12,626 nucleotides of DNA from a virus (Duplodnaviria; Heunggongvirae; Uroviricota; Caudoviricetes). Within the stretch, counting starts at the first letter, position 1, and each line of letters begins with the position of its first letter. Positions 1,459-12,479 of the stretch are shown piece by piece. The DNA lies in the IMG/VR virus record IMGVR_UViG_2695420456_000020; one strand, 5' to 3'. Made by a program: the position numbers and the translations under genes. The notes below the pieces were generated by a model. That model was given only the letters and a program-made list of their open reading frames with translations. It did not search any database and was not told the DNA's origin.

Positions 1459-2625
1459 TCAGGCCTTATGGTGGAAATAATCACTCAGGCGAGAAAACAT
1501 GCTGCCTTCCCCGACAGATTCCAGGGTAACCAGCGGCCAGTGCGCCACCTGTTTATCACGGTCGTAAAGTTCAATTTCCCCTACCCGCTGATGGGCGCTA
1601 ATTGGCGCGGTGAGTTCTTTACCATCAAGGGTATATTTGGCTTTGATATGTGGAATTTCGGCTTTCGGTAGCACCATCCAGAACTCTTGTTCCGTTCCCA
1701 GGTCGATATTTTCTTTATCGCCATACCAGATGCGTTCCGTTCCGACCTTTTTCCCACGGTGCAAAATTTGCACCGTAGTAAAGTTTTGTTGCCCCCAACG
1801 CAGTAATTTTCTTGCCTCTTCCTCACGACCTTTTGCACTGTCAGCCCCCATTACCACTGCAATGAGACGACGCTGCCCATCTACAGCCGAAGCAATGAGA
1901 TTAAACCCGGCACCAGAAGTATGACCCGTTTTCAGGCCGTCAACATTCATGGTTTTATCCCACAACAACCCGTTACGGTTTTGCTGGGTGATACCGTTCC
2001 AGGTGAGACTTTTCTCACTGTACATATGATAAAACTCGGGCTCGCCGTGGATGATAGCACGAGAAAGCACAGCTAAATCATAAGCCGAGCTATGCTGGCC
2101 AGGTGCATCCAGACCATGCACTGTTTCAAAATGCGTATCCTTGAGATGCAGCTTCTCGGCATAGTTGTTCATCATTTCAACAAACTGCCGTTGCCCACCG
2201 GCAATATAGTCAGCCAGAGCAACACAAGCGTCATTTCCGGAATCCACAATTAAACCACGGCTTAAATCACGTACCGATACGCGATCGCCCTCTTTCAAAA
2301 ACATCAGTGAAGAACCGACAAACACCGGATTATCTTTCGCCCACGCATCGCGCCCCACGGTGACAATATCGTCTGGCGTAATGCGATGACTATCGATAGC
2401 GCGATCCACGACATAACCCGTCATCAGCTTTGTCAGGCTGGCGGGATTGCGCTGTTGATGCTCATTACCCGCGGTGAGGATCTGACCGGTGGTGTAATCC
2501 ATCAATACCCAGGACCCGGCATGAATCTCTGGAGGCTGAGGTGAAAAAGGAATGTTTTCCGCCGCAAAACCAGACGATAAGTTAAAAACGAACAAAGAAG
2601 CAGCAATAATAAGACGGCGTTTCAA
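1459..2625 (-). CDS. dacD: D-alanyl-D-alanine carboxypeptidase DacD (PBP6b), 388 aa
   Basis: Translation contains a signal peptide (KRRLIIAASLFVFNLSSGFA) and the SxxK (SLTK), SGN and KTG motifs of class-C PBPs. Likely TTG start at 2623-2625 (giving the MKRRLII N-terminus) with a GAGG-type SD 8 nt upstream; the six-frame track extends to a second TTG at 2631. Confidence 0.93.
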   Translation of the reverse strand: MKRRLIIAASLFVFNLSSGFAAENIPFSPQPPEIHAGSWVLMDYTTGQILTAGNEHQQRNPASLTKLMTGYVVDRAIDSHRITPDDIVTVGRDAWAKDNPVFVGSSLMFLKEGDRVSVRDLSRGLIVDSGNDACVALADYIAGGQRQFVEMMNNYAEKLHLKDTHFETVHGLDAPGQHSSAYDLAVLSRAIIHGEPEFYHMYSEKSLTWNGITQQNRNGLLWDKTMNVDGLKTGHTSGAGFNLIASAVDGQRRLIAVVMGADSAKGREEEARKLLRWGQQNFTTVQILHRGKKVGTERIWYGDKENIDLGTEQEFWMVLPKAEIPHIKAKYTLDGKELTAPISAHQRVGEIELYDRDKQVAHWPLVTLESVGEGSMFSRLSDYFHHKA

Positions 2626-2833
2626 CAGCAAACCCTCAGGAGTTTCAAATAGCTGTTCTTTTTACGGAAATACTTATGAACTGGCTGGAATAAAGTGCAA
2701 GAAAATGTGACTACCCTCTCATTTTTATCTGACATGATCTGTTGCCACTCGCTGCCAAATTGTGGCGCTAAAGCTGATTAGCACGGTGATATTTGATACT
2801 CTGGCAGACAGCAGAAATAACGGATTTAACCTA

Positions 2834-2896
2834 ATGATGAATGACGGTAAGCAACAATCTACCTTTTTGTTTCACGATTACGCGCAACACCCCTGA
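2834..2896 (+). pseudogene. sbcB: 5' fragment of exonuclease I gene sbcB (first 16 codons MMNDGKQQSTFLFHDY), then a foreign junction and stop after 4 more codons
   Basis: ATGATGAATGACGGTAAGCAACAATCTACCTTTTTGTTTCACGATTAC encodes the ExoI N-terminus as I recall it (MMNDGKQQSTFLFHDYETFG...). From about 2883 the frame reads AQHP then TGA (2894-2896) and unrelated prophage sequence follows. Confidence 0.8.
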
Positions 2897-3251
2897 GAAC
2901 CGCCATGAACAAGGGTTTCATGATTTGTGATTTTAGTTTGGTACGCAATTTGGTACACAACACAATTTTCACTTCAGCGGGTAGTCATCAAACTCACCAT
3001 AACGAGCATCGTTAATGATGTATGTGATCACCACAAATATCACATCTGGACTAGTTCCGTCTTCATGCGCAGGTATCTGTTCACGCCTCCCTTTCTGCAA
3101 ATCCTAAAGATGAGATTTTGGGGTTTTGGGATATCTTTTTATCCTCAGTTCTCTATCAATTCTACAAAGCAGTAATGAACCATCACTATGTGATAGTGAG
3201 GCATCCGCTACATTAAGCGCAGAGAAATGATGCAGTGGTGGGCAGACTGGC

Positions 3252-3279
3252 TTGATGAAAAGGTGGAGTGATCCACCTT
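3252..3279 (-). terminator. Rho-independent terminator downstream of the tailspike gene
   Basis: Inverted repeat aaggtgga (3260-3267) / tccacctt (3272-3279) with loop gtga; on the minus strand the stem is followed by a T-rich tract (ttttcatc). Confidence 0.55.
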
Positions 3280-3422
3280 AACCACTATCGAAGAGCACAA
3301 AGCCTTGCAATCCAGTGCAAAGCTTTGTGTGTCTCAGTTTTGTCTCATCAACCACCGCAAGTCATCGATCGATTGACACTTGGATGATAGACTTCATGCT
3401 TTTTATGGCTAATTTCTGAATT

Positions 3423-5654
3423 TTAAATGGAAATCCTTGCGCTTATATACGCGCTATTTCTTATTTCAGGCTGCTTATTGGATGGATTTAAATTCATAGA
3501 TACACCATTTGTTCCAGTAATTATATTAAGTGTTCCTGATGACAAATCTATTGATGTAGCGGTGATTCCCACAGACTCAGTTGGAGATATATATGCTACA
3601 TTCAATTGTTCAGAACCTGTTATTTTTGAGCGTTCATTAGATATAAAAAAATCCACCTTAGCCCCACTTGTTTCACTTCCATTTTTCTTCAAATTGAACG
3701 TTGACTTGTAAATATTTCCTCTGTATACCTGCCTTCTATATTGACCATTTATTGACACTGGTTGATTGAAATTTGTCATATCAGAAATTGGGTACGTTTC
3801 ATACATATGCGCCCCTTGCGTGCCTATAAATGTTTGGTTAAATCTACCATGAGAGCCTGATACAACTATCATGTCATATCCTTCAATCCACCCTTCTTTG
3901 TGATTTATTGCATATCTAGGAATATCTCCAAAGAAAGCATTTCCATTAATATGGATTGATGACGCCTTATCAATGCTGGAAGGTTCAGGGGTGATTAGTA
4001 TCAACGAAATAACTGAAGATGATACGTCAGGTGTTGCACCACATGTTCTAGAGATATTGTTATCACTTACCTTAGCACTACCATTTTTCCAAACTGATAT
4101 CACCGAACACCCTGAAGAAAATTCATTATCAGAATATATCTCAACTATATTATCACTACATACAACAGATCGCCAACCAGCAACAACAACACCTTGAACA
4201 AATGTTCCAGATGAAGGCGATGTTAGAAAGAATTTATTTCCTATTATTGTTACATCATCATGAGGAAACTTCGTTCCAGTATAATTACCATTAGTCCCAA
4301 ACCATGCACCAATCCTAGCATAACCTCTTATAATATTATTACTAAAAGAAATACCAATAAGTTTTTCGTTATTCCCAAGACAATAAAGATTAACACCTCT
4401 TGAATTTATATTATTTGTTAGTATTTGATTGTTATTTATGCTCAAATTGATAATGGTAGCTGTTGTTGAGTTACAACCAATAACTGATGAGTCTTGAAAA
4501 TATGCCCCATCAAGTATGTTATCAGAAATAATAATATTTCTATATACTCCCCCAGCATGTCCTATTTCAATTTGCAAATTTGAGCTTTTGTTTTGAAGTT
4601 TATTTCCGCTAATAATTATATTTGTGCTAGGTGTGCCATCAACTTTAATTCCAAGTATTGCGTTTGGTTGAGCGGAATCAATCTGTATATCACAATTCCA
4701 CGTAATATGGTCCACCTCCATATCACACGACCCGTGACAGTCTTTGACTGTTACATCGGTTGATCCTGCAATATCAACAAAATGTTGATCATGTCTCCCT
4801 TGCTCCACTCTCTCTATAGTTACATTTTTGCTATGACCTAAACCGATTAAATCACCATAATCCCTTGTTGGGGTTGCGCTACCGTCAGTGATTGTAAAAT
4901 CTCTAAAAACAATATTGCCGGCAGCTCCATAGCCAGTTCTAGTATCATAATATTTATTTGTTATCAAGACACCATCCATCCCCCTCTCAGTGGGTAGTCT
5001 CTGAATGATGGTAGATCCAGCACCAGCCCCACAGAAAGTTACGTTAGCGGGAACTCTAATGCATGAATAATTATGACCTGATTTTTCAATGCTGACGTAA
5101 TATTTACCTGGAGGAAGATAAATAATCCCACCACCTAGAGACTCAAGATAGTCCAATGCAGAGTTAATTGCTATTGTTGAATCATTTGACTTTCCAGATT
5201 CACCAAACATTTGTGGTGTAACTACAATAAAAGAATCAATCAACTGCTGAATTGTTAGTCCAGACGAAGTACCAACATGCCCCGCACCATAATTTGACTC
5301 TATTATTGTTCTAAACTGATCAGGGTCATACTTCAGCACATTAGGAAAATAGAACTGCTGCGCACCGTATGCATCATAAACAGCCATTGAATGGCCTTGC
5401 ACAGTTACGAACTTGGCAATCTGTCCGTTATATACAGGATACCCGCCAGAGTTAATGATGATTGGCTGTGCAACAGGAACGTGAGAGCCGTCTTCGTTCT
5501 CCACATAAACCTGAATCTGGTTTTCAGGGTTTACCGGGTCAGTGTCAATTTTACCGATATAAATTTTGCCATTAGCTACGGCTTTAAAAGAACGCGCCAT
5601 AGTGAAGAGTTGCGAAGGCATCCCAATTACAACATTTGGAGTTATATCAGGCAT
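3423..5654 (-). CDS. Tailspike protein (743 aa): P22-gp9-like head-binding N-domain fused to a pectate-lyase-like right-handed beta-helix receptor-binding domain
   Basis: Start ATG at 5652-5654 with AGGA 8 nt upstream. N-terminus [43 protein letters not shown]...[10 protein letters not shown] aligns with the P22 tailspike head-binding domain ([43 protein letters not shown]...). After about residue 113 the sequence has a pectate-lyase-3-type start ([30 protein letters not shown]) and repeated N/D-x-I beta-helix rungs. The track ORF begins at an upstream TTG (5807), which I treat as non-coding. Confidence 0.9.
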
Positions 5655-6065
5655 ATTAGTCATCCTGTTTGAAAATTTAGATATTGAAGAAAACGGAATG
5701 ACTGCAGACAAAGATGCAATTGTTTTGAAAAATAATCTTCTATTCACTTTAAAACCATGCAATATGAACAAAATAATTATTTTACAACAGACAAGAATCT
5801 TGATCAACAGACATATGCTTTATGCGTTTAATGCGTCACTTAAAAATAACAAGTACTACTTTTATTCCTATCGTCCATGATTTTCATTTTCAAATATTAT
5901 TAAATAACAATTCCTATTTATAATATCTGTCATTTAATTTGCTCCAGATACAAGGAATCGCCGCAGCATGGCTACGGTTGGTATTTGTTTGGTTTTTGAA
6001 CTACGAAAATTTCGTAGTGCTATCCATCAAGGCCATCGCCGCTTAGTTGCTGCGGTGAATTTTGG

Positions 6066-6110: not shown

Positions 6111-7046
6111 TCAGTAGTTATGTACTGAAGGAGGTAATTCTTTATTCTTAAGTCTCATCCATGCGGAAAGATTCGTTGGTCCGTCTGGCTCATTGATATC
6201 AACATCTCGTGTGTGATTGATTAAAACGTCTCTCGCCATATCGATAATACGGGAGAACTCATAACCGCAGTCATGACATCTTCCTGAATAGTTCGATTGA
6301 ATTTGTTTCAGCGCCGGATACAGTTCGCGGAATAATGCCTGTGAGCGGTTGGCATAATCCCATAACCATACAAGGCTGTTTGCTTCTTTTGCAGAAAGCT
6401 CGTTTGCTTTCTTCTCTTGTTTGCCGATGAACTCACCTTCAAGTGGAACTCGAGCTGCAAGTGACAGTGCTTCGGTAAACTGCTCCTCACTGATTTCTTT
6501 GTACGAACATCCAAAATGGGATTTAAGTGACGACCACATGGTGATCATCGCCTTAGCCTGTTTTTCTTTTGGCAGATACTGACCGCGACTCATGACGAGT
6601 TGTTTAATGGCTTCCTGCTGTTCAGTGGTGATTTTACCCGGCAACGCTTTTTTAGCTTTGCGTGGGTTAACTACATGGCCTTTAGTCCAGTAGTCATGCA
6701 GCACGCTAAAGCATTCCTCCTGGTACTGAATCAGTTTATCGCGGATGTCAGCTCGAACTTTCTCAGGGTTGATGCTGAACAGCCATCCATTTAACTTCTT
6801 CAAAGGAAGGCAGAGTAGCTTACGAAGCTTCCCATCAGCGGCAACCATATTCATATGAATACAGTTGAACTTATCTAGTTGTTTCATAAGTTTTTGTTGC
6901 TGAGTACCCCAACTCATTCCAAGGTTTTCAACGATTGGCTTCATCGCAACGTATGCAACTCCGGCAGCCATGGCGGTGATAATTTGCTGACCGTTGAATG
7001 GTACGTAAGAGGTGTTCACTGCTTCTAAAATTGCTATACTATTCAT
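6111..7046 (-). CDS. ant: Antirepressor Ant (311 aa), P22 Ant-like
   Basis: ATG at 7044-7046 with GGAG 10 nt upstream. Translation [43 protein letters not shown]... matches P22 antirepressor as recalled, and the gene sits immediately downstream of arc. The track ORF extends upstream to 7112, which I treat as non-coding. Confidence 0.88.
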
Positions 7047-7115
7047 GTTGGTTTTTCTCCACGGATTTACTGACAACCGAAGCCCTGACTGTTCCCGCAG
7101 TTGGGGCTTCAACTT
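7047..7115 (+). ncRNA. sar: Candidate sar-like antisense RNA (antisense to the ant ribosome-binding site and arc-ant spacer); ends approximate
   Basis: P22 makes a ~69-nt antisense RNA from a promoter inside the 5' end of ant, reading toward arc. Here a plus-strand -10-like TATACT (7035-7040) lies just inside ant, and a stem gaagccc (7079-7085) / gggcttc (7104-7110) lies in the arc-ant spacer. Inferred from position only; the 3' T-tract is weak. Confidence 0.35.
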
Positions 7116-7276
7116 TACGCGCCAATGCGCCCTTCCTTCTTAAAGCTTTCCATTACTCTCTGATAAATCTCAGAGTTAACAGACCGACCATTCTCTTCCG
7201 CCACCTTGCGTACCAAATCCAATACTTCTTTAGGCCACCGCAAATTGAACTGCGGCATCTTGCTCATTCCTTTCAT
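7115..7276 (-). CDS. arc: Arc repressor (53 aa, ribbon-helix-helix)
   Basis: Translation [53 protein letters not shown] is near-identical to P22 Arc as recalled. ATG at 7274-7276 with GAGGTG 3 nt upstream; stop at 7115-7117. Confidence 0.95.
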
Positions 7277-7290
7277 ATTCACCTCACAAT

Positions 7291-7311
7291 ATAGGTCCAC
7301 CGTGGACCTAT
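7291..7311. promoter_or_regulatory. Mnt operator (Omnt): perfect palindrome ataggtccaccgtggacctat
   Basis: Perfect 10-bp arms around a central C, identical to the P22 mnt operator core (AGGTCCACGGTGGACCT on the other strand), lying between the Pant -10 and the arc start. Confidence 0.9.
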
Positions 7312-7339
7312 TGAGAATATAGTAGAGTGCTTCTATCAT
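7311..7339 (+). promoter_or_regulatory. Candidate Pmnt promoter (-35 TTGAGA 7311-7316, 17-bp spacer, -10 TATCAT 7334-7339), overlapping and divergent from Pant
   Basis: Hexamers with correct spacing read directly from the plus strand, 28 bp upstream of the mnt ATG; P22 has overlapping divergent Pant/Pmnt promoters. Confidence 0.6.
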
Positions 7340-7344
7340 GTCAA
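7316..7344 (-). promoter_or_regulatory. Pant promoter (-35 TTGACA, 17-bp spacer, -10 TATATT on the minus strand) with the Arc operator (7319-7339) embedded in the spacer
   Basis: Minus strand reads TTGACA (rc of 7339-7344), 17 bp, TATATT (rc of 7316-7321). The sequence between them, ATGATAGAAGCACTCTACTAT (rc of 7319-7339), equals the P22 arc operator as recalled. Confidence 0.85.
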
Positions 7345-7366
7345 TACACTAACTTGGAGTGATGGC

Positions 7367-7621
7367 ATGGCTAGAGATGATCCGCACTTTAACTTCCGTA
7401 TGCCTATGGAAGTAAGGGAGAAATTAAAATTCAGGGCGGAGGCGAATGGGAGATCAATGAACTCCGAGTTGTTACAAATCGTCCAAGATGCTCTATCAAA
7501 ACCATCGCCTGTGACTGGCTATCGCGACGAAGCTGAACGCTTGGCTGATCAGCAGGCAGAGCAGTTCAAGACTGTTGTGTTTGAGACACTTAAAAAGATT
7601 TATGGCAAGGATGATAAATAA
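7367..7621 (+). CDS. mnt: Mnt repressor (84 aa, ribbon-helix-helix; maintenance of ant repression)
   Basis: Translation MARDDPHFNFRMPMEVREKLKFRAEANGRSMNSELLQIVQDALSKPSPVTGYR... matches P22 Mnt as recalled. ATG at 7367 with GGAG 7 nt upstream; stop TAA at 7619-7621. Confidence 0.95.
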   Translation: MARDDPHFNFRMPMEVREKLKFRAEANGRSMNSELLQIVQDALSKPSPVTGYRDEAERLADQQAEQFKTVVFETLKKIYGKDDK

Positions 7622-8157
7622 TGCTGCACACAATTCATTTCTTATGCCCCGTTAACACCGCCACTGTTGGGCAACTTCAGAACCACTGTCTCACCGCATT
7701 ATCTCAAGGCGCAACTGAATTAAATATCCATATATCAAGTCAGGGAGGGGAAACTGCCGCTGGTTTTACTGCGTATAACTTTCTTAAGTCACTCCCTGTT
7801 ACCGTTAGAACTCACAACATAAGCAATGTTGAATCCATAGCTAATATCGTTTTCCTGGCTGGCTCAGAACGTTTCGCAAACCCATTATCAAGATTCCTGT
7901 TACATCCTCTATTATGGGGCTTTGCCACCCCAGCCGCCGACCATGCCAGATTGAGAGAGTACGGGAAATGCCTCGATAACGATCTTGATCGCTTCGTTGA
8001 GACGTTCAATATCGACATCGGAACCCATATTAGGTGGGCATCCCTGATAGCAGACTCGACCATTTTGGATGCTAACAAGGCTCTTGAGCATGGCATAATT
8101 AATTCCATAAAAACTGCAAGGCTGGTATCCAATCAGGCAAACTGGTGGGTTGTTTGA
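7621..8157 (+). CDS. Compact ClpP-fold (S14-like) serine peptidase, 178 aa, translationally coupled to mnt
   Basis: ATG at 7621-7623 overlaps the mnt stop (TAATG). The translation aligns by eye with ClpP: ISSQGGETAAG vs INSPGGSVTAG, Ser72 in NVESIAN vs GQAASMG, His95 in RFLLHPL vs RVMIHQP, Asp150 in ADSTILDANKALEHGIINSI. It lacks the ClpP N-terminal region. Confidence 0.75.
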   Translation: MLHTIHFLCPVNTATVGQLQNHCLTALSQGATELNIHISSQGGETAAGFTAYNFLKSLPVTVRTHNISNVESIANIVFLAGSERFANPLSRFLLHPLLWGFATPAADHARLREYGKCLDNDLDRFVETFNIDIGTHIRWASLIADSTILDANKALEHGIINSIKTARLVSNQANWWVV

Positions 8158-8234
8158 TGGGTAAATCATGATTACTCCTATGGCCGGAAAGATTCGCATC
8201 CTTAAATTTAGTGAGCAAGGATTACCATCACACC

Positions 8235-8420
8235 TTAACAGCCTCCGCGTCCACGAGTAATTCTGTCGCGGATTTGCTTCTTACGGTGGTTTAGGCTTGA
8301 TAGCTTGGCTTCTGCTTCTGATATTTGCGCATCTAGATCTTTAAGCTCAAGATCTGAAAGTCGCTGGTCAAGCAGGGTTTGATTCAACTCAATGTTGTTC
8401 AGGCGTTCTTCTATGGTCAT
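8235..8420 (-). CDS. Small coiled-coil protein (61 aa), function unknown
   Basis: ATG at 8418-8420 with AGGAG 5 nt upstream. Translation MTIEERLNNIELNQTLLDQRLSDLELKDLDAQISEAEAKLSSLNHRKKQIRDRITRGRGGC has heptad-like leucine spacing. No homolog recognised. Confidence 0.5.
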   Translation of the reverse strand: MTIEERLNNIELNQTLLDQRLSDLELKDLDAQISEAEAKLSSLNHRKKQIRDRITRGRGGC

Positions 8421-8561
8421 GATTACTCCTTGTTGAGGTTGATGTGAAACGATTGATTGTATACGCACTCTTTTGTTAGCTAGTAGCTTTGCTTAATCGC
8501 AAGATAAAGTTTCTGATTAATCCCTAAAAATCAAAAAATAAAGTTAAAACAGGTACATGAT

Positions 8562-8765
8562 ATGGAATGGATCATAGGATTTGTTGTTCTTATCTTCATA
8601 GCCAGTATGTTTAAACCAAGAAGTTGCGATATCTGTGGTGCTGGATTTAAGAAAAAGTACTTCACATGGACTATCGATGGAAAGAAACAGCATCTTTGTC
8701 CGTACTGCAACAGTAAAATGGAGAGACGCAACAGCGATAGGCGCTTTAAGGATCGATTTGGTTAA
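8562..8765 (+). CDS. Small membrane-anchored zinc-ribbon protein (67 aa), function unknown
   Basis: N-terminal hydrophobic helix (EWIIGFVVLIFIASMF) followed by CDIC...CPYC (two CxxC pairs 21 residues apart). AT-rich with rare codons (ata, aga, agg, cga). Followed by a terminator. An antisense ORF (8544-8792) has no comparable features. Confidence 0.55.
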   Translation: MEWIIGFVVLIFIASMFKPRSCDICGAGFKKKYFTWTIDGKKQHLCPYCNSKMERRNSDRRFKDRFG

Positions 8766-8780
8766 CCATTTTATCTCCAA

Positions 8781-8814
8781 CAAAAAACCCACCTGACGGT
8801 GGGTTTCATTTCTT
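8781..8814. terminator. Bidirectional rho-independent terminator between the convergent zinc-ribbon and lipoprotein genes
   Basis: Stem cccacc (8788-8793) / ggtggg (8798-8803), loop tgac, flanked by AAAAAA (8782-8787) and TTTCATTTCTT (8804-8814), so a T-tract follows the hairpin on either strand. Confidence 0.75.
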
Positions 8815-9232
8815 AATCTTGCTTTGTAGACGGTATAAGGGATGCGTTTGCCTCTTTTGGCTTCAAGGTATACATCCCACCATTAAATGGATCAACAGCA
8901 AGCCAACCAATTAACCCACCAAACACAAGGTTTCCACCAATATACCAACCATTAGCATTGGCTTTGATTGGCAGGGTAACTGGTTCGTACCCATCCTTTT
9001 CCATAGTGATCTGGTAACTCTTTTTGCCAAAATAACTACCATCTGACTTGGCAAGAGTTACTCCTTGTGGGGTCTTACCTTGCGCAACAATCACGCCTGA
9101 TTCGTCTTTTACCTTAAAGCTCGCACCGGAAGGATTGCTGTTCACTTGCACAAGCTGTGTTTCGTCACCAACAATAGTTGCGCACCCAGATAACATGATA
9201 GCGCCAGCAACGACGCCAATAATCCTCTTCAT
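8813..9232 (-). CDS. PEGA-domain lipoprotein (139 aa)
   Basis: MKRIIGVVAGAIMLSGC signal peptide with lipobox LSGC (Ala at +2). PEGA-like motif VQVNSNPSGASFKVKDESGVIVAQGKTPQGVTLAKSDG ... MEKDGYEPV. Start taken at ATG 9230-9232 (weak GGAA SD); the track ORF begins 4 codons upstream. A candidate sigma70 promoter (TTCACA-17-TAGGAT, minus strand, 9263-9291) precedes it. Confidence 0.72.
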   Translation of the reverse strand: MKRIIGVVAGAIMLSGCATIVGDETQLVQVNSNPSGASFKVKDESGVIVAQGKTPQGVTLAKSDGSYFGKKSYQITMEKDGYEPVTLPIKANANGWYIGGNLVFGGLIGWLAVDPFNGGMYTLKPKEANASLIPSTKQD

Positions 9233-9327
9233 ATCAATTTCCATATCTAAAAAACCGGAAACATCCTAATGACAAACTATTCAAATGTGAAGCACGAGAT
9301 AAGATCAATCCATCCGTGGACGACTAA

Positions 9328-11496
9328 TTACTCCTGTGTCATTCCGCTTAGCGATGCCACAATCCCAGCCCTCGACAAACGCTGGAACTCTTCGTTTCCT
9401 AGTGCATCGCGAATTGCTTTTACGGCGGCCTTATTTGCCATAAATCTGCGTTCCGCCGCCGCTAATGCGCCATCACTTGCCCCAACCTTAACTGCCTTTG
9501 TTGCCTCTTGAACAGCCTTTTCAATAGCGTAACGACCACTTCTGGTTGCGGATAATTTCGCTATCGATCCTTTTGCTATCGCATCAATTGCTCCACCAGC
9601 AGCGCCACCCACTATTGCTCCAATAACACCTCCTCCAGAGAACCCTGCGATAGCGCCAGCGGTTGGAAAAGCGCCAGACAATACGCTCTCTAAAACTGGA
9701 TGAAGGCCATTCTCAAGAGTGCTAATGGCTGGCATAGAGCGCCCTGTTTGTTCAACATATCGAAGTGGCTTTGTTGCAGCTCTTGCAAGTTCTCCGTATG
9801 AACTTGTAATCCTGCCAAGTTCTGGAGAATATCGACTAATTGCCTTCACGTTTTGTGGGGTAAGAATAGTCGCGATATGCTTAATTCCAGCTCCTTCAGA
9901 CTTACCTCCGCGTACCCCTTGCGATACCGCATCTTGTAATATTGATGCAATTGCTGGCGCGCGTTCCGATTCAGGTAGGGCGCTTATTATTTTATGGAAC
10001 TGACCTGTTCCACTTTTTGCTGAACCCTGTAACGCCTTAGATCCATTAGTTACCAACTGATCAGTTGCAAGGTCTCTACCAAACGCTGCTTCAGCCTGTT
10101 CTTGTGCTGTAAATCTTGCCTTTGACAGATCATTAGCTTTTTGCCAGTCATCAAGAAAACCGCCATTTTGAGCCATTATGCGCATATCTTCCGTTGCTGC
10201 ATCACGAAGCTCAGCCATGCGCCTTGCCGTATTTGCCTCACCAGACCTTATATACTTCTGCTCTGCGTCAGCAAGTTTACTTCGCCATGCCTTCATGGCA
10301 TCAAACGTGATTCCTTTTTTACCAGTTTTAGCATAAGCAGATGCGAATTGTTTCATCTCAGGAGTTAGCGGCATGCCAGCCAAAATATCACCCTGAATTG
10401 TAGCGTTCAGGTTTGACATTCTGGCCTTTGCGTCAGGCATCGTGGAGCGGACGCTATCCCATGCGGCCTTTTCTGAATTTTTCATTTTATCAATACTTGC
10501 CAAAACCCTTTGTTTTATGGCTGCACTTTTTTCTGATGCAGTTCCTGCTTCAGCCCCAAACTCATCCAATGCTGAGTTAAATTTCGACTCTATTTCACTG
10601 AATGCTTTGGTGTGTGCATCCTGTGTAATTCCGGGCTTTGACGCCAGAATCCCCTCCGCCTGAGCAAGACCACGACTACCTGATCTCATGCCAGGAGTTA
10701 ATGCGTTGATATCTATTCCAGCAGTATCTGCTGCTTTTGCTATTTCGTCTGACACATTAGCTGACTGTCTGGCAATAATCTCTCTTCCTGTACCAGACTT
10801 TGCCATTTTCGAAACATCAGCAGCGGAATTTATTGCCCCGCCACCAAGAACTTGAGGTGATTTAGAGGTTAAGATCCTTCCAGCCCCAGAAAGTATCCCC
10901 TGAGCACCAATATTGATACCACCATTAATGGCAGCATTTTGTGCAAAATCGCCCTCCTGATTTGCAGCATCAGCAAGAGAACCTGCAATCATGTTTCCTG
11001 CGGAACCGATGTCTCCTGCGAGCTTTGCTGTCGCTCCAGCAGCTTTTGCCGCTGTGCCAATTGGCAGGAGATACCCCCCAAATGTTTCACCGGCTTGCGC
11101 CCAAGGGTCTGTCGGTCGATCGACAGGGCGATAAACATCATCCAAAACCTTGGGGCCACCAAGCCCCTGGCTGATTGCATTAATCAGACTTGCGCCACCC
11201 TGCAATACGTCAAATGGTATATTTACCAGACCACGACCAGCCTGTTCTGCAATTTGCCCTGCACTTTGACCACCTGTGAGCCAATCACCAGCTTGTTGCA
11301 TCAATGATGGTTCTTCTTTCTGCTGCTGAGGCGGAGGGTATGCTGCATAAAACTGATCTCTTGCTTCAGCCCATTTGTCACCAGCCTTAGGGGCAACAAC
11401 CTCATCAAAATATTGCGCTTGAGCCTGTGCTTTCTGTTCTTCAGTTAACGCCTGATACTGTGGAGAGGCGATAACATCTTTCCATGCTTTAGCCAT
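9328..11496 (-). CDS. Putative DNA-ejection (internal virion) protein, 722 aa, Ala/Gly/Gln-rich; P22 gp16-position
   Basis: Long ORF whose start overlaps the upstream stop (TAATG at 11494-11498). Composition is low-complexity A/G/Q/E/K-rich with a glycine-zipper segment ([31 protein letters not shown]). Function inferred from position relative to immI/tailspike; no direct homology recalled. Confidence 0.65.
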
Positions 11497-12479
11497 TAAT
11501 CACCCCATAAAGACGAGAAACCGGACTCATTGCTGTCGCTTCCTGATTTTCGCTCACTAACATATGTGTCATAACCTGATGAACTATATCCCATTGATTC
11601 AGCCTCCCTTGCTGCAACCTTTTGAAATACATAATATTGCGATCGGATTTCAGATAACTGTTTTCTGACGACCTCTTCAGGCTGTGTTATATCGAGTTTC
11701 GCGATCAGGTTTTCCAGTTTTTGTCCTTCAGCATTGGAGAGACTACCCATACCTCGCATAGTCTGCACGTTCTGGACAAACGCACCAGACTTTAATTCTT
11801 CTATCGCATTACGGTTTGCAATCCCTTCAGCACTTGTGAAGCCATCTATATTTCTTCCTTCGAAGCGACCGATACCTTCAAGCTCCTTCTTACCAAGCAA
11901 AGAATCAATTTTCTCTATCCCTCGCTCACCAGTAATCAACGCATTGTTGTAATTATTGTTGCCATCAAGCCATCTCTTAGCCTGAGACATTCTGGCTGAC
12001 GTTGCAGCTTTACCGGTTAGAGGATCAATTCCTGTCGCTGCTATCTGTGAGTTAAGAGACAAAACATCCATATCCTGAAGTTGTCCTGCTCTTTCAATGG
12101 CCGCCTGTGACTGCTTAAACACATACTTGTCGTGATTCAGTCTTGCCATTTGAGCCTTATAGGAAAGATCCTGCCCCCTAATAGCCCTCGCATTCGTCAT
12201 GTCATTATTGCGAATGGTTTCGTTAATTCTTTGCTGCTCCTGCTGGCGACCAACCATCTTATCCTGAACAGCAAACGCCTTTTCTGGCCCAAGCGCACCG
12301 AGAGACATAGTAGTCAGCATGTGTGATAGCTGCTCTGGATTCTGGATACCTGTCTGAATCATCCAGTCAGCATTCGCACCCACACGATTTAACCTGTCCT
12401 TGTTGTCAGTAATGAATTTACTGTAGGCTTCCGGCCCCTGAGAAAGAGCGACGTTAGCCCTCATGGCTAAATCGCCCAT
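11496..12479 (-). CDS. Putative DNA-ejection protein, 327 aa; P22 gp20-position
   Basis: ORF tightly coupled to the downstream 722-aa gene; Q/N/R-rich, coiled-coil-like. ATG at 12477-12479 has no clear SD (alternative ATG at 12462-12464). An in-frame stop at 12552-12554 excludes a longer N-terminus. Confidence 0.6.

Follow-up and report, generated by a model that had tools for sequence, protein, structure and literature searches.

The segment at 8158-9244 of IMG/VR virus record IMGVR_UViG_2695420456_000020 (the window, meaning the whole analysed stretch of 12,626 nucleotides) lies between a ClpP-like gene and the ejection-protein genes of a P22-like prophage and carries three small genes, here called A, B, and C. 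In our reading, to which we give a rough probability of 0.7, these are three unrelated, independently moving accessory genes ("morons") within the so-called ant moron of P22-like phages and not a co-functioning cluster, because each gene matches different phages and assorts independently of the others, and because B and C occur alone in phages of unrelated types. An earlier note on this DNA had described three small open reading frames (ORFs) in alternating orientation, which were recovered as listed below together with the sites that accompany them; its proposal that they belong together as a cluster did not hold, for the reasons just given.

8166-8178, minus strand: first copy of the 13-mer TCATGATTACTCC (minus strand GGAGTAATCATGA), a remnant right after the ClpP-like stop codon
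8235-8420, minus strand (late-operon strand): gene A, 61 amino acids, ATG behind an AAGGAG Shine-Dalgarno sequence
8430-8784, plus strand: gene B module, composed of the B ORF and a 129-nucleotide (nt) AT-rich leader, an insertion with respect to the Emek/E92 arrangement
8562-8765, plus strand (mnt strand): gene B, 67 amino acids, predicted membrane helix and C4 zinc ribbon
8785-8806, both strands: intrinsic bidirectional terminator, AAACCCACC-tgac-GGTGGGTTT
8813-9232, minus strand: gene C, predicted lipoprotein of 139 amino acids, PHROG family phrog_6823 (epsilon34 gp15 family)
9263-9291, minus strand: candidate gene C promoter, TTCACA-17 nt-TAGGAT, scan score 9/12

Mosaic structure and independent assortment

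The stretch from gene 16 to gene 9 of P22-like phages was named the "ant moron" by Villafane et al. (2008; PMC2629481), who distinguished ten gene-content types among sixteen genomes. The same work gives epsilon34 gene 15 as a gene of unknown function with bacterial homologues (PMC2629481); this gene is a homologue of gene C, and the two proteins are 98.6% identical. Megablast against 50,697 phage records split the segment into pieces with different partners. The ClpP-like piece (7601-8179) matches phiv205-1, with the match ending at 8179; gene A (8226-8431) matches Emek and Kapi1, where the homologue is Kapi1_061, the Emek matches stopping at 8431; the stretch 8780-9292, comprising gene C, its terminator, and its candidate promoter, has its matches in epsilon34, Gally, and vB_EcoP-720R6; and from 9293 onward the end of gene 16 (9293-9400) matches HK620. 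Gene B gave no DNA match in any of these records and is annotated in no P22-like phage record searched. Compared with related phages the segment is thus of variable conservation, a mosaic of phiv205-1, Emek/Kapi1, epsilon34/Gally, and HK620 matches.

The genes are also distributed independently among bacterial chromosomes. Among 5426 complete E. coli genomes gene A is carried by 130, gene B by 32, and gene C by 124, and at least 80% of the region 8100-9350 is covered in just three. Several arrangements could be distinguished: mnt, C, another gene, A, and B in ETEC4085; A directly beside C without B, 44 nt apart, in strain E92; A and B followed by other cargo without C in UMNK88 and strain 203740; and C alone beside mnt in epsilon34 and Gally. 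Variable presence among phages and prophages of the P22 type, one of the properties by which a moron, an independently expressed insert in a phage operon in the sense of Juhala and Hendrix as used in PMC2629481, is recognized, was found for all three genes.

Versions of the slot found elsewhere hold a gene with a Panacea domain, a toxin-antitoxin-type antitoxin domain (locus L010, 4485-4934; locus L027, 4015-4464), and a YafO toxin gene lies near gene B in the Yersinia loci; the slot therefore gathers toxin-antitoxin-like cargo as well.

Joints between the modules

The terminator hairpin at 8785-8806 folds on both strands, as the earlier note had claimed of a bidirectional terminator, with energies of -14.2 and -18.1 kcal/mol on the two strands and z of about -3, and of its two U-tracts the minus-strand one, towards gene C, is far better. 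The epsilon34 record labels the hairpin a terminator, and in Emek and phiv205-1 it is found after gene A and after the ClpP-like gene, respectively. Matches to the A-B module extend to 8809-8810 and matches to the C module begin at 8780. Since the homologies from the two sides overlap here (8780-8810), this hairpin, which the modules of B and C have in common, probably served as a joint for recombination.

A second short sequence points to another joint. The 13-mer TCATGATTACTCC, which corresponds to the gene A Shine-Dalgarno sequence and ATG read on the other strand, occurs twice in the window as a direct repeat flanking gene A (8166-8178 and 8417-8429), with further copies at 3192 of locus L002 and at 3566 of locus L004, and the copy after the ClpP-like stop codon marks a module junction. 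In Emek the terminator hairpin comes immediately after the 13-mer. In phiv205-1 the order is ClpP-like stop codon, 13-mer, and terminator, with the body of gene A absent; this layout is exactly the product that a deletion between the two 13-mer copies would be expected to leave. The junction between A and B is identical in all 32 E. coli genomes carrying B, and when it was used as a probe 34 E. coli genomes matched 8390-8431 only, while 32 matched all of it. The shared A-B junction, the matches ending at 8431, and the Emek and phiv205-1 layouts together indicate that B with its 129-nt leader (approximately 8430-8784) was inserted between the gene A ribosome-binding site and a pre-existing terminator. 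Modules would in this way be joined at short common sequences, the terminator hairpin and the 13-nt Shine-Dalgarno/ATG repeat, and the junctions give a concrete view of how such exchange may proceed.

The gaps between the genes differ in composition. The GC content is 0.32 between A and B and 0.36 between C and gene 16, while the two remaining gaps, at 0.42-0.43, come close to the 0.44 of the whole window, so that the AT-rich spacers that had been described are present in the first two cases and not in the others. A divergent promoter region had also been proposed at 8421-8561, where the consensus scan gave no usable site; the region 7000-9700 holds eight promoter-like sites, no enrichment over the 5.1 +/- 2.0 of shuffled sequences.

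Gene C, a predicted outer-membrane lipoprotein

For gene C a length of 139 amino acids is the correct one, since the upstream ATG at 9244 is not conserved (it is ACG in phage Gally). The protein begins with a signal peptide and the lipobox LSGC (MKRIIGVVAGAIMLSGC|A), in agreement with the lipobox pattern [LVI][ASTG][GA]C, and a set of 39 homologues keeps the lipobox Cys and the +2 Ala without exception, the Gly preceding the Cys being nearly invariant. By the +2 rule of E. coli a lipoprotein without Asp at this position is sorted to the outer membrane, and the Ala at +2 therefore predicts this location; we infer that the product is an outer-membrane lipoprotein. Pairwise Nei-Gojobori comparison of homologous loci, which served as the coding test for all three genes, gave a ratio of nonsynonymous to synonymous substitution rates (dN/dS) of 0.02-0.04.

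In an AlphaFold2 model residues 25-93 form a beta-sandwich, with a predicted local distance difference test (pLDDT) score of about 95 over most of it, residues 95-112, hydrophobic and rich in glycine, are poorly defined, and the final hairpin is confident. The C-terminal part carries a conserved, glycine-rich, hydrophobic motif, NGWYIGGNxVFGGLIGWLxVDPFNGGMYTLxP. Structural neighbours were generic sandwiches of the transthyretin, CnaB, carboxypeptidase-regulatory, and PEGA type; the Pfam score for PEGA (PF08308) lies just below the gathering threshold, and comparison with PDB sequences gave generic Ig-like noise. A profile search of 1.8 billion representative proteins returned 5278 clusters at E <= 0.001, of which 1977 remained at E <= 1e-10, and ten of the relatives scanned with Pfam showed no domain covering the gene C-like part. 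One homologue is fused to an OmpA-type barrel, and some members of the family lie in ordinary chromosomal neighbourhoods without phage context.

The closer Enterobacterales relatives of gene C occupy prophage moron slots, the ant moron among them. Lambdoid prophages of the E. coli ED1a type and of Proteus have them flanked by the tail chaperone gene and the tape-measure gene, and in other lambdoid prophages they separate tail gene I from J. Approximately 2% of complete E. coli genomes have gene C in the form found here, and the variant of lambdoid prophages adds further genomes. Where E. coli lambdoid prophages hold the gene C homologue between chaperone and tape-measure genes, tail genes M and L are separated by an inserted porin gene (Porin_1), a second envelope moron in that tail cluster (loci L015 and L017-L019, approximately 10261-11424).

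The candidate promoter upstream of gene C has hexamers that are conserved in seven contexts with differing upstream neighbours (TTCACG/TAAGAT in Gally, TAGAAT in ETEC4085), so that the gene effectively qualifies as a self-contained cassette of candidate promoter, gene, and terminator. Expression can be followed in its Gally copy, GALLYPH_14, which has 96.9% DNA identity and differs by one residue in the protein. In the Crohn's-associated strain LF82 the log2(fpkm+5) values of this gene, where fpkm stands for fragments per kilobase per million reads, were 6.2 and 4.8 in stationary lysogeny broth (LB), 9.8-10.5 in Dulbecco's modified Eagle medium (DMEM), and 9.4-11.0 in macrophages (PMC9928086, tables S1 and S4). 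The gene was 14-fold up in macrophages versus LB (q 1.4e-31) and ranked with the most abundant Gally transcripts both in DMEM and in macrophages, while the late gene GALLYPH_12, immediately upstream, stayed at 3.6-4.2 (PMC9928086). The signal of GALLYPH_14, approximately 1000-fold above that of GALLYPH_12, argues for an own, condition-responsive promoter active in the lysogen, at least for the Gally copy. It should be noted that the authors describe Gally as being without morons, which follows from the LB value of 51 for GALLYPH_14 falling under their cut-off of 78 (PMC9928086). Also induced in macrophages, 6- to 40-fold, were mnt, the tailspike gene, GALLYPH_17, and GALLYPH_13 (171 amino acids, phrog_6067), the last being the divergent neighbour of the gene C homologue, as seen in locus L007 at 3034-4073 (PMC9928086).

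B or C may singly have an exclusion role. For gene C this would be as a Cor/Llp-type lipoprotein that inactivates an outer-membrane receptor or blocks an entry step at the outer membrane, thereby shielding the lysogen and sparing progeny from loss on cell debris. We consider this a possible explanation, held by us as a minority view. A lipoprotein predicted at the outer membrane and expressed from the prophage (in the Gally copy) is what it calls for, as are the tail-gene moron slots, where other entry-blocking genes sit (reportedly so at the HK97 gp15 position), and strong purifying selection would fit the binding of a conserved host protein. However, the carriers differ greatly in tails and receptors, being P22-like podoviruses and several lambdoid siphoviruses; the thousands of bacterial members, with chromosomal ones outside any phage context, suggest a general envelope function; and there is no similarity of sequence or fold to Cor or Llp. 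For gene C we lean towards envelope or host-niche fitness over a block of phage receptors, because of its extreme conservation, its huge family with chromosomal members, carriers with different receptors, and induction in DMEM and macrophages. Most likely it would act on a conserved envelope component as a lysogenic-conversion factor.

Gene B, a predicted small membrane protein mostly missed by annotation

Gene B starts with a predicted membrane helix at residues 2-17 (hydropathy 2.68 in the window from residue 3). AlphaFold2 models the protein (mean pLDDT 83) with a helix at 2-16, a hairpin at 34-45, and a basic C-terminal helix at 47-66, and C22, C25, C46, and C49, arranged as two CxxC knuckles around the hairpin, are predicted to form a C4 zinc ribbon. 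Every full-length homologue has C22 and C46, one alignment shows C49 as invariant too, and C25 is at least 90% conserved. Matches to the Pfam families Zn_ribbon_8 and DZR_2 are weak, and sequence and fold searches, including the PDB, returned only generic zinc-ribbon/zinc-finger similarity. Beyond residue 17 there are 14 Lys and Arg versus five Asp and Glu. This charge distribution, together with the need for a reducing compartment, suggests an N-out/C-in topology with the ribbon in the cytoplasm; gene B would accordingly encode a small inner-membrane-anchored protein whose basic zinc ribbon faces the cytoplasm.

Homologues of gene B are few, 18 clusters in 5.8 billion proteins, mainly from Yersinia, with further copies in Edwardsiella phage Edno5 and a Klebsiella phage KP12 record. 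In the two phages an mnt-like gene of the same orientation ends approximately 20 nt before gene B, and in two Yersinia prophage loci gene B is found downstream of an Arc-family gene; in a third Yersinia locus (L011) it sits amid myovirus tail genes, far from any mnt gene. Over the four genera its length and cysteines are kept at 65-85% identity, synonymous sites are saturated with dN of 0.14-0.26, and the invariant columns of the DNA alignment fall on codon positions 1 and 2. A terminator hairpin follows every copy of gene B, and its stem shows compensatory changes. ORFs antisense to B hold stops in the Yersinia and Edwardsiella homologues.

In 31 of the 32 complete E. coli genomes with gene B the RefSeq Prokaryotic Genome Annotation Pipeline (PGAP) leaves it unannotated or places a non-conserved antisense ORF instead (UMNK88_RS34115, CXW72_RS25380); the records include NZ_CP139853, NZ_CP148401, NC_017641, and NZ_CP025913. 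A conserved small protein with a predicted membrane helix is thus mostly missed or called on the wrong strand, an annotation gap which exposes a blind spot for small prophage genes.

A consensus scan gave no convincing promoter for gene B. Within 8158-8561 there is no terminator-like site between mnt/ClpP-like and B, the folds of 8158-8240 being no better than those of shuffled sequences. Gene B may close the mnt operon, being read from Pmnt antisense through A, or alternatively it may use a weak promoter within its AT-rich leader; lying on the mnt strand, it would probably be read from Pmnt in the lysogen.

A second alternative, which we find doubtful, is that gene B alone is an analogue of SieA, the cytoplasmic zinc ribbon hindering the ejection-protein channel or the incoming DNA. 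Its strand and side relative to mnt are those of sieA, the gene is associated with mnt-like genes in three further groups of phages, and a membrane anchor with a basic cytoplasmic domain is predicted. Set against this are a single helix where a polytopic protein would be expected, the lack of homology to the SieA types, the Yersinia copy L011 located far from mnt, and the generic nature of zinc ribbons. As a speculation, gene B would most plausibly act as a SieA-like block or as a regulator at the inner face of the membrane.

Gene A, a predicted soluble coiled-coil protein

Gene A belongs to phrog_7586 (E 5.7e-44). Its product is a heptad-rich coiled coil with balanced charge that ends in RGRGGC, and most homologues end in RG(R/C)G(G/S)C. 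No hydrophobic window, membrane segment, or signal feature was found in the hydropathy profile, and the product is predicted to be soluble. There are 42 homologue clusters, from E. coli, Salmonella, and Serratia, mostly of 61 amino acids, and dN/dS is mostly 0.1-0.2, reaching 0.64 in pairs with few differing sites. The features which the earlier note had listed for the three products were thus recovered: a coiled coil for A, a membrane helix and zinc ribbon for B, and a PEGA-like lipoprotein for C, the last with a PEGA score below threshold.

Gene A is always found on the late-operon strand, convergent with the end of the mnt-strand genes. In Emek-type arrangements the terminator abuts its Shine-Dalgarno sequence, and the gap to C in E92 measures just 44 nt, too little space for a separate promoter in these arrangements; no promoter of A could be detected, nor was there any terminator after the gene. 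For P22 late transcription the tailspike gene lies beyond this entire region, which has to be crossed first (Villafane et al., 2008; PMC2629481). Gene A would be made mainly by such antiterminated late transcription running toward the tailspike gene. Of the independent transcription that had been attributed to all three genes, the part which concerns C stands, given its conserved candidate promoter, its terminator, and the Gally RNA sequencing (RNA-seq) data; A lacks promoter room, and B may end the mnt operon.

Some other identities for gene A were considered and rejected. Haemolysin XhlA (PF10779), the label given by PGAP to longer gene A calls, shares with it an N-terminal coiled coil of similar length, but gene A scores 14.2 bits, below the cut-off of 34.7, and has no hydrophobic segment for the C-terminal membrane helix; for the same lack a toxin or membrane peptide is ruled out. 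P22 orf59a does not align with gene A. Nor are A and B an obligate pair, as approximately 98 E. coli genomes have A without B, and B is found without A in the Yersinia, Klebsiella-phage, and Edwardsiella-phage loci. E. coli protein cluster P0178 consists of the first 29 residues of gene A followed by the last residues of Ant, which implies a deletion on the late strand that fused A to the 3' end of ant.

Weighing of the interpretation

The earlier note had named exclusion or receptor masking as candidate functions, singly or together. The joint version, in which the trio acts in place of sieA and excludes superinfecting phages by receptor masking or by blocking DNA ejection, now seems highly improbable. 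The position is indeed that of sieA, beside the ejection-protein genes, two of the products (B and C) are predicted envelope proteins, and B always adjoins A in E. coli; yet the complete set is nearly absent from the E. coli genomes and each gene is also found without the others, unrelated kinds of phage carry B or C by itself, A shows neither membrane nor signal features and is a promoterless gene of the late strand, and beyond signal-peptide similarity there is no match to SieA, Cor, or PADLOC families. In PADLOC-DB 2.0 neither B nor C matched a defence family and A gave low-scoring coiled-coil matches to PbeC and JetC; with NCBIfam the proteins of the segment showed sub-threshold generic matches only.

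That one or more of the ORFs, B above all, is a chance or decaying reading frame has a probability close to nil: the blank or antisense annotation of B and its near invariance within E. coli, which leaves little within-species signal, would suit this, but the conservation of B over four genera with saturated synonymous sites, the stops in the antisense frames of other genera, and dN/dS values of A and C well below 1 show purifying selection on all three, which are not pseudo-ORFs.

Against our own reading of the segment as three separately moving genes with separate roles the following points have to be counted. Gene B is beside A in all 32 E. coli genomes that carry it, which leaves some room for a functional link between the two within the E. 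coli lineage. The sole basis for transcription of B from Pmnt is that no terminator is detectable between mnt/ClpP-like and B, and mnt was not detectably expressed in published RNA-seq of a Kapi1 lysogen. For gene C, the hydrophobic glycine-rich C-terminal motif has a pLDDT of just 50-63, the RNA-seq data come from the homologous Gally prophage, where the gene was only approximately 3-fold above background in stationary LB, and deletion of the whole Gally prophage left macrophage survival unchanged (PMC9928086). The latter result weakens a role in macrophage fitness.

Going one step further, we would tentatively take C as a member of a large unnamed outer-membrane lipoprotein family that has been captured repeatedly by temperate phages of several tail types and is expressed from the prophage to remodel the envelope, and B as a new minimal passenger of the mnt operon in the inner membrane, with an entry-blocking or regulatory role, that has been missed by annotation. 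Being widespread, highly conserved, and (in the Gally copy) strongly expressed from the prophage, the predicted lipoprotein of gene C is a testable candidate; on the tentative reading just given it would stand for a novel mechanism of exclusion, by receptor blocking, or else for a novel factor in stress or in the host niche.

Surroundings of the segment

The window starts with E. coli-type chromosome and continues with the right end of the P22-like (Lederbergvirus) prophage; the junction between dacD and the prophage (2400-3500) is approximately 97% identical to E. coli genomes.

867-1340: sbmC-like ORF, chromosomal part
1459-2631: dacD, chromosomal part
3423-5807, minus strand: tailspike gene
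6111-7112, minus strand: ant
7047-7114, plus strand: sar antisense RNA, Rfam RF00262, 95.6 bits, full-length, at the arc/ant junction
7115-7339, minus strand: arc
7367-7621, plus strand (gene B strand): mnt, Arc and Repressor_Mnt domains
7621-8157, plus strand (gene B strand): ClpP-like gene, CLP_protease
9328-11496, minus strand: gp16 homologue, ejection protein
11496-12479, minus strand: gp20 homologue, ejection protein

With a full-length sar RNA at the arc/ant junction the immunity I region seems to be intact. The Rfam scan of 6900-9500 gave this RNA alone, apart from a weak chance match on the terminator, with 8158-9244 otherwise empty, and a scan for a tRNA that might serve as attachment site found none within the window. 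Between the tailspike gene and dacD there are approximately 790 nt, and this prophage end lacks tRNA, integrase, and gtr genes; the GC content of the tailspike gene is very low (0.29-0.41, versus 0.44 for the whole window), and the 794-amino-acid ORF listed for it begins at a TTG well upstream of the likely start. The ClpP-family gene after mnt (178 amino acids, PF00574, E 4e-12) has its start codon overlapping the mnt stop codon, and such a pair of Arc/Mnt and ClpP-like genes is also present in locus L016 (10809-11593) and locus L004 (2773-3557), adjoining an antirepressor gene in E. coli lambdoid siphovirus prophages. The protease is apparently co-transcribed with the maintenance repressor mnt.

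Comparison with known systems

Small lipoproteins encoded in or beside tail genes and altering the cell surface are represented by Cor (phi80, N15, HK022), Llp (T5), and Bor (lambda), of which Cor and Bor are made from the prophage and Llp early in T5 infection. Gene C is likewise a predicted small lipoprotein encoded in or beside tail genes, but it belongs to a far larger bacterial lipoprotein family. Only residues 1-20, the signal peptide, align with Cor (phrog_1119; E 0.002), and Llp-like folds are not among the structural neighbours. The hhalign match to lambda Bor/Iss (PF06291) has a probability of 63% and covers 29 columns, which take in the signal peptide and lipobox and run on for a few positions past the Cys; the lambda Bor sequence used was confirmed by Pfam at 105 bits. 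The glycine-zipper family of SlyB and Pcp (PF05433) was rejected as well, since hhalign gave a probability of 1% and Pfam no hit, the resemblance being compositional only.

The gene C homologues of the E. coli and Proteus lambdoid prophages share the chaperone/tape-measure slot of the HK97 gp15 moron, which Cumby and colleagues are said to have described in 2012 as an entry-blocking gene between tail chaperone and tape-measure genes. The HK97 protein resides in the inner membrane and is not known to be a lipoprotein, and the likeness seen here is one of position.

P22 SieA is an inner-membrane superinfection exclusion protein (Leavitt et al., 2024; PMC10883804). The earlier note had placed sieA at this position in P22, correctly, the annotated order of the P22 genome being 16 - sieA (with its own promoter) - orf59a - mnt - arc - ant - 9. 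The slot beside the ejection-protein genes is therefore shared, and gene B resembles sieA in its strand relative to mnt and its predicted inner-membrane location. SieA itself is a polytopic protein of 164 amino acids with its own mapped promoter, matching phrog_7745 at E 9e-109, while A, B, and C match it nowhere and fall into other PHROG families or none. Homology to SieA types A-C is lacking, and only B has a membrane helix, and just one; the expectation of a cargo different from sieA was thus borne out.

The closest likeness of the segment is to the ant moron of P22-like phages as a whole, with which it shares location together with mnt, arc, sar, and ant, and in which the gene set changes in nearly every phage, as it does here. 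The combination of a ClpP-like gene with A, B, and C is not among the types of 2008 (PMC2629481). The region is in this sense a textbook case of moron flux, a phenomenon whose existence is already known, presented here in a new combination of genes and with two uncharacterised, potentially useful small proteins, B and C, predicted to reside in the envelope.

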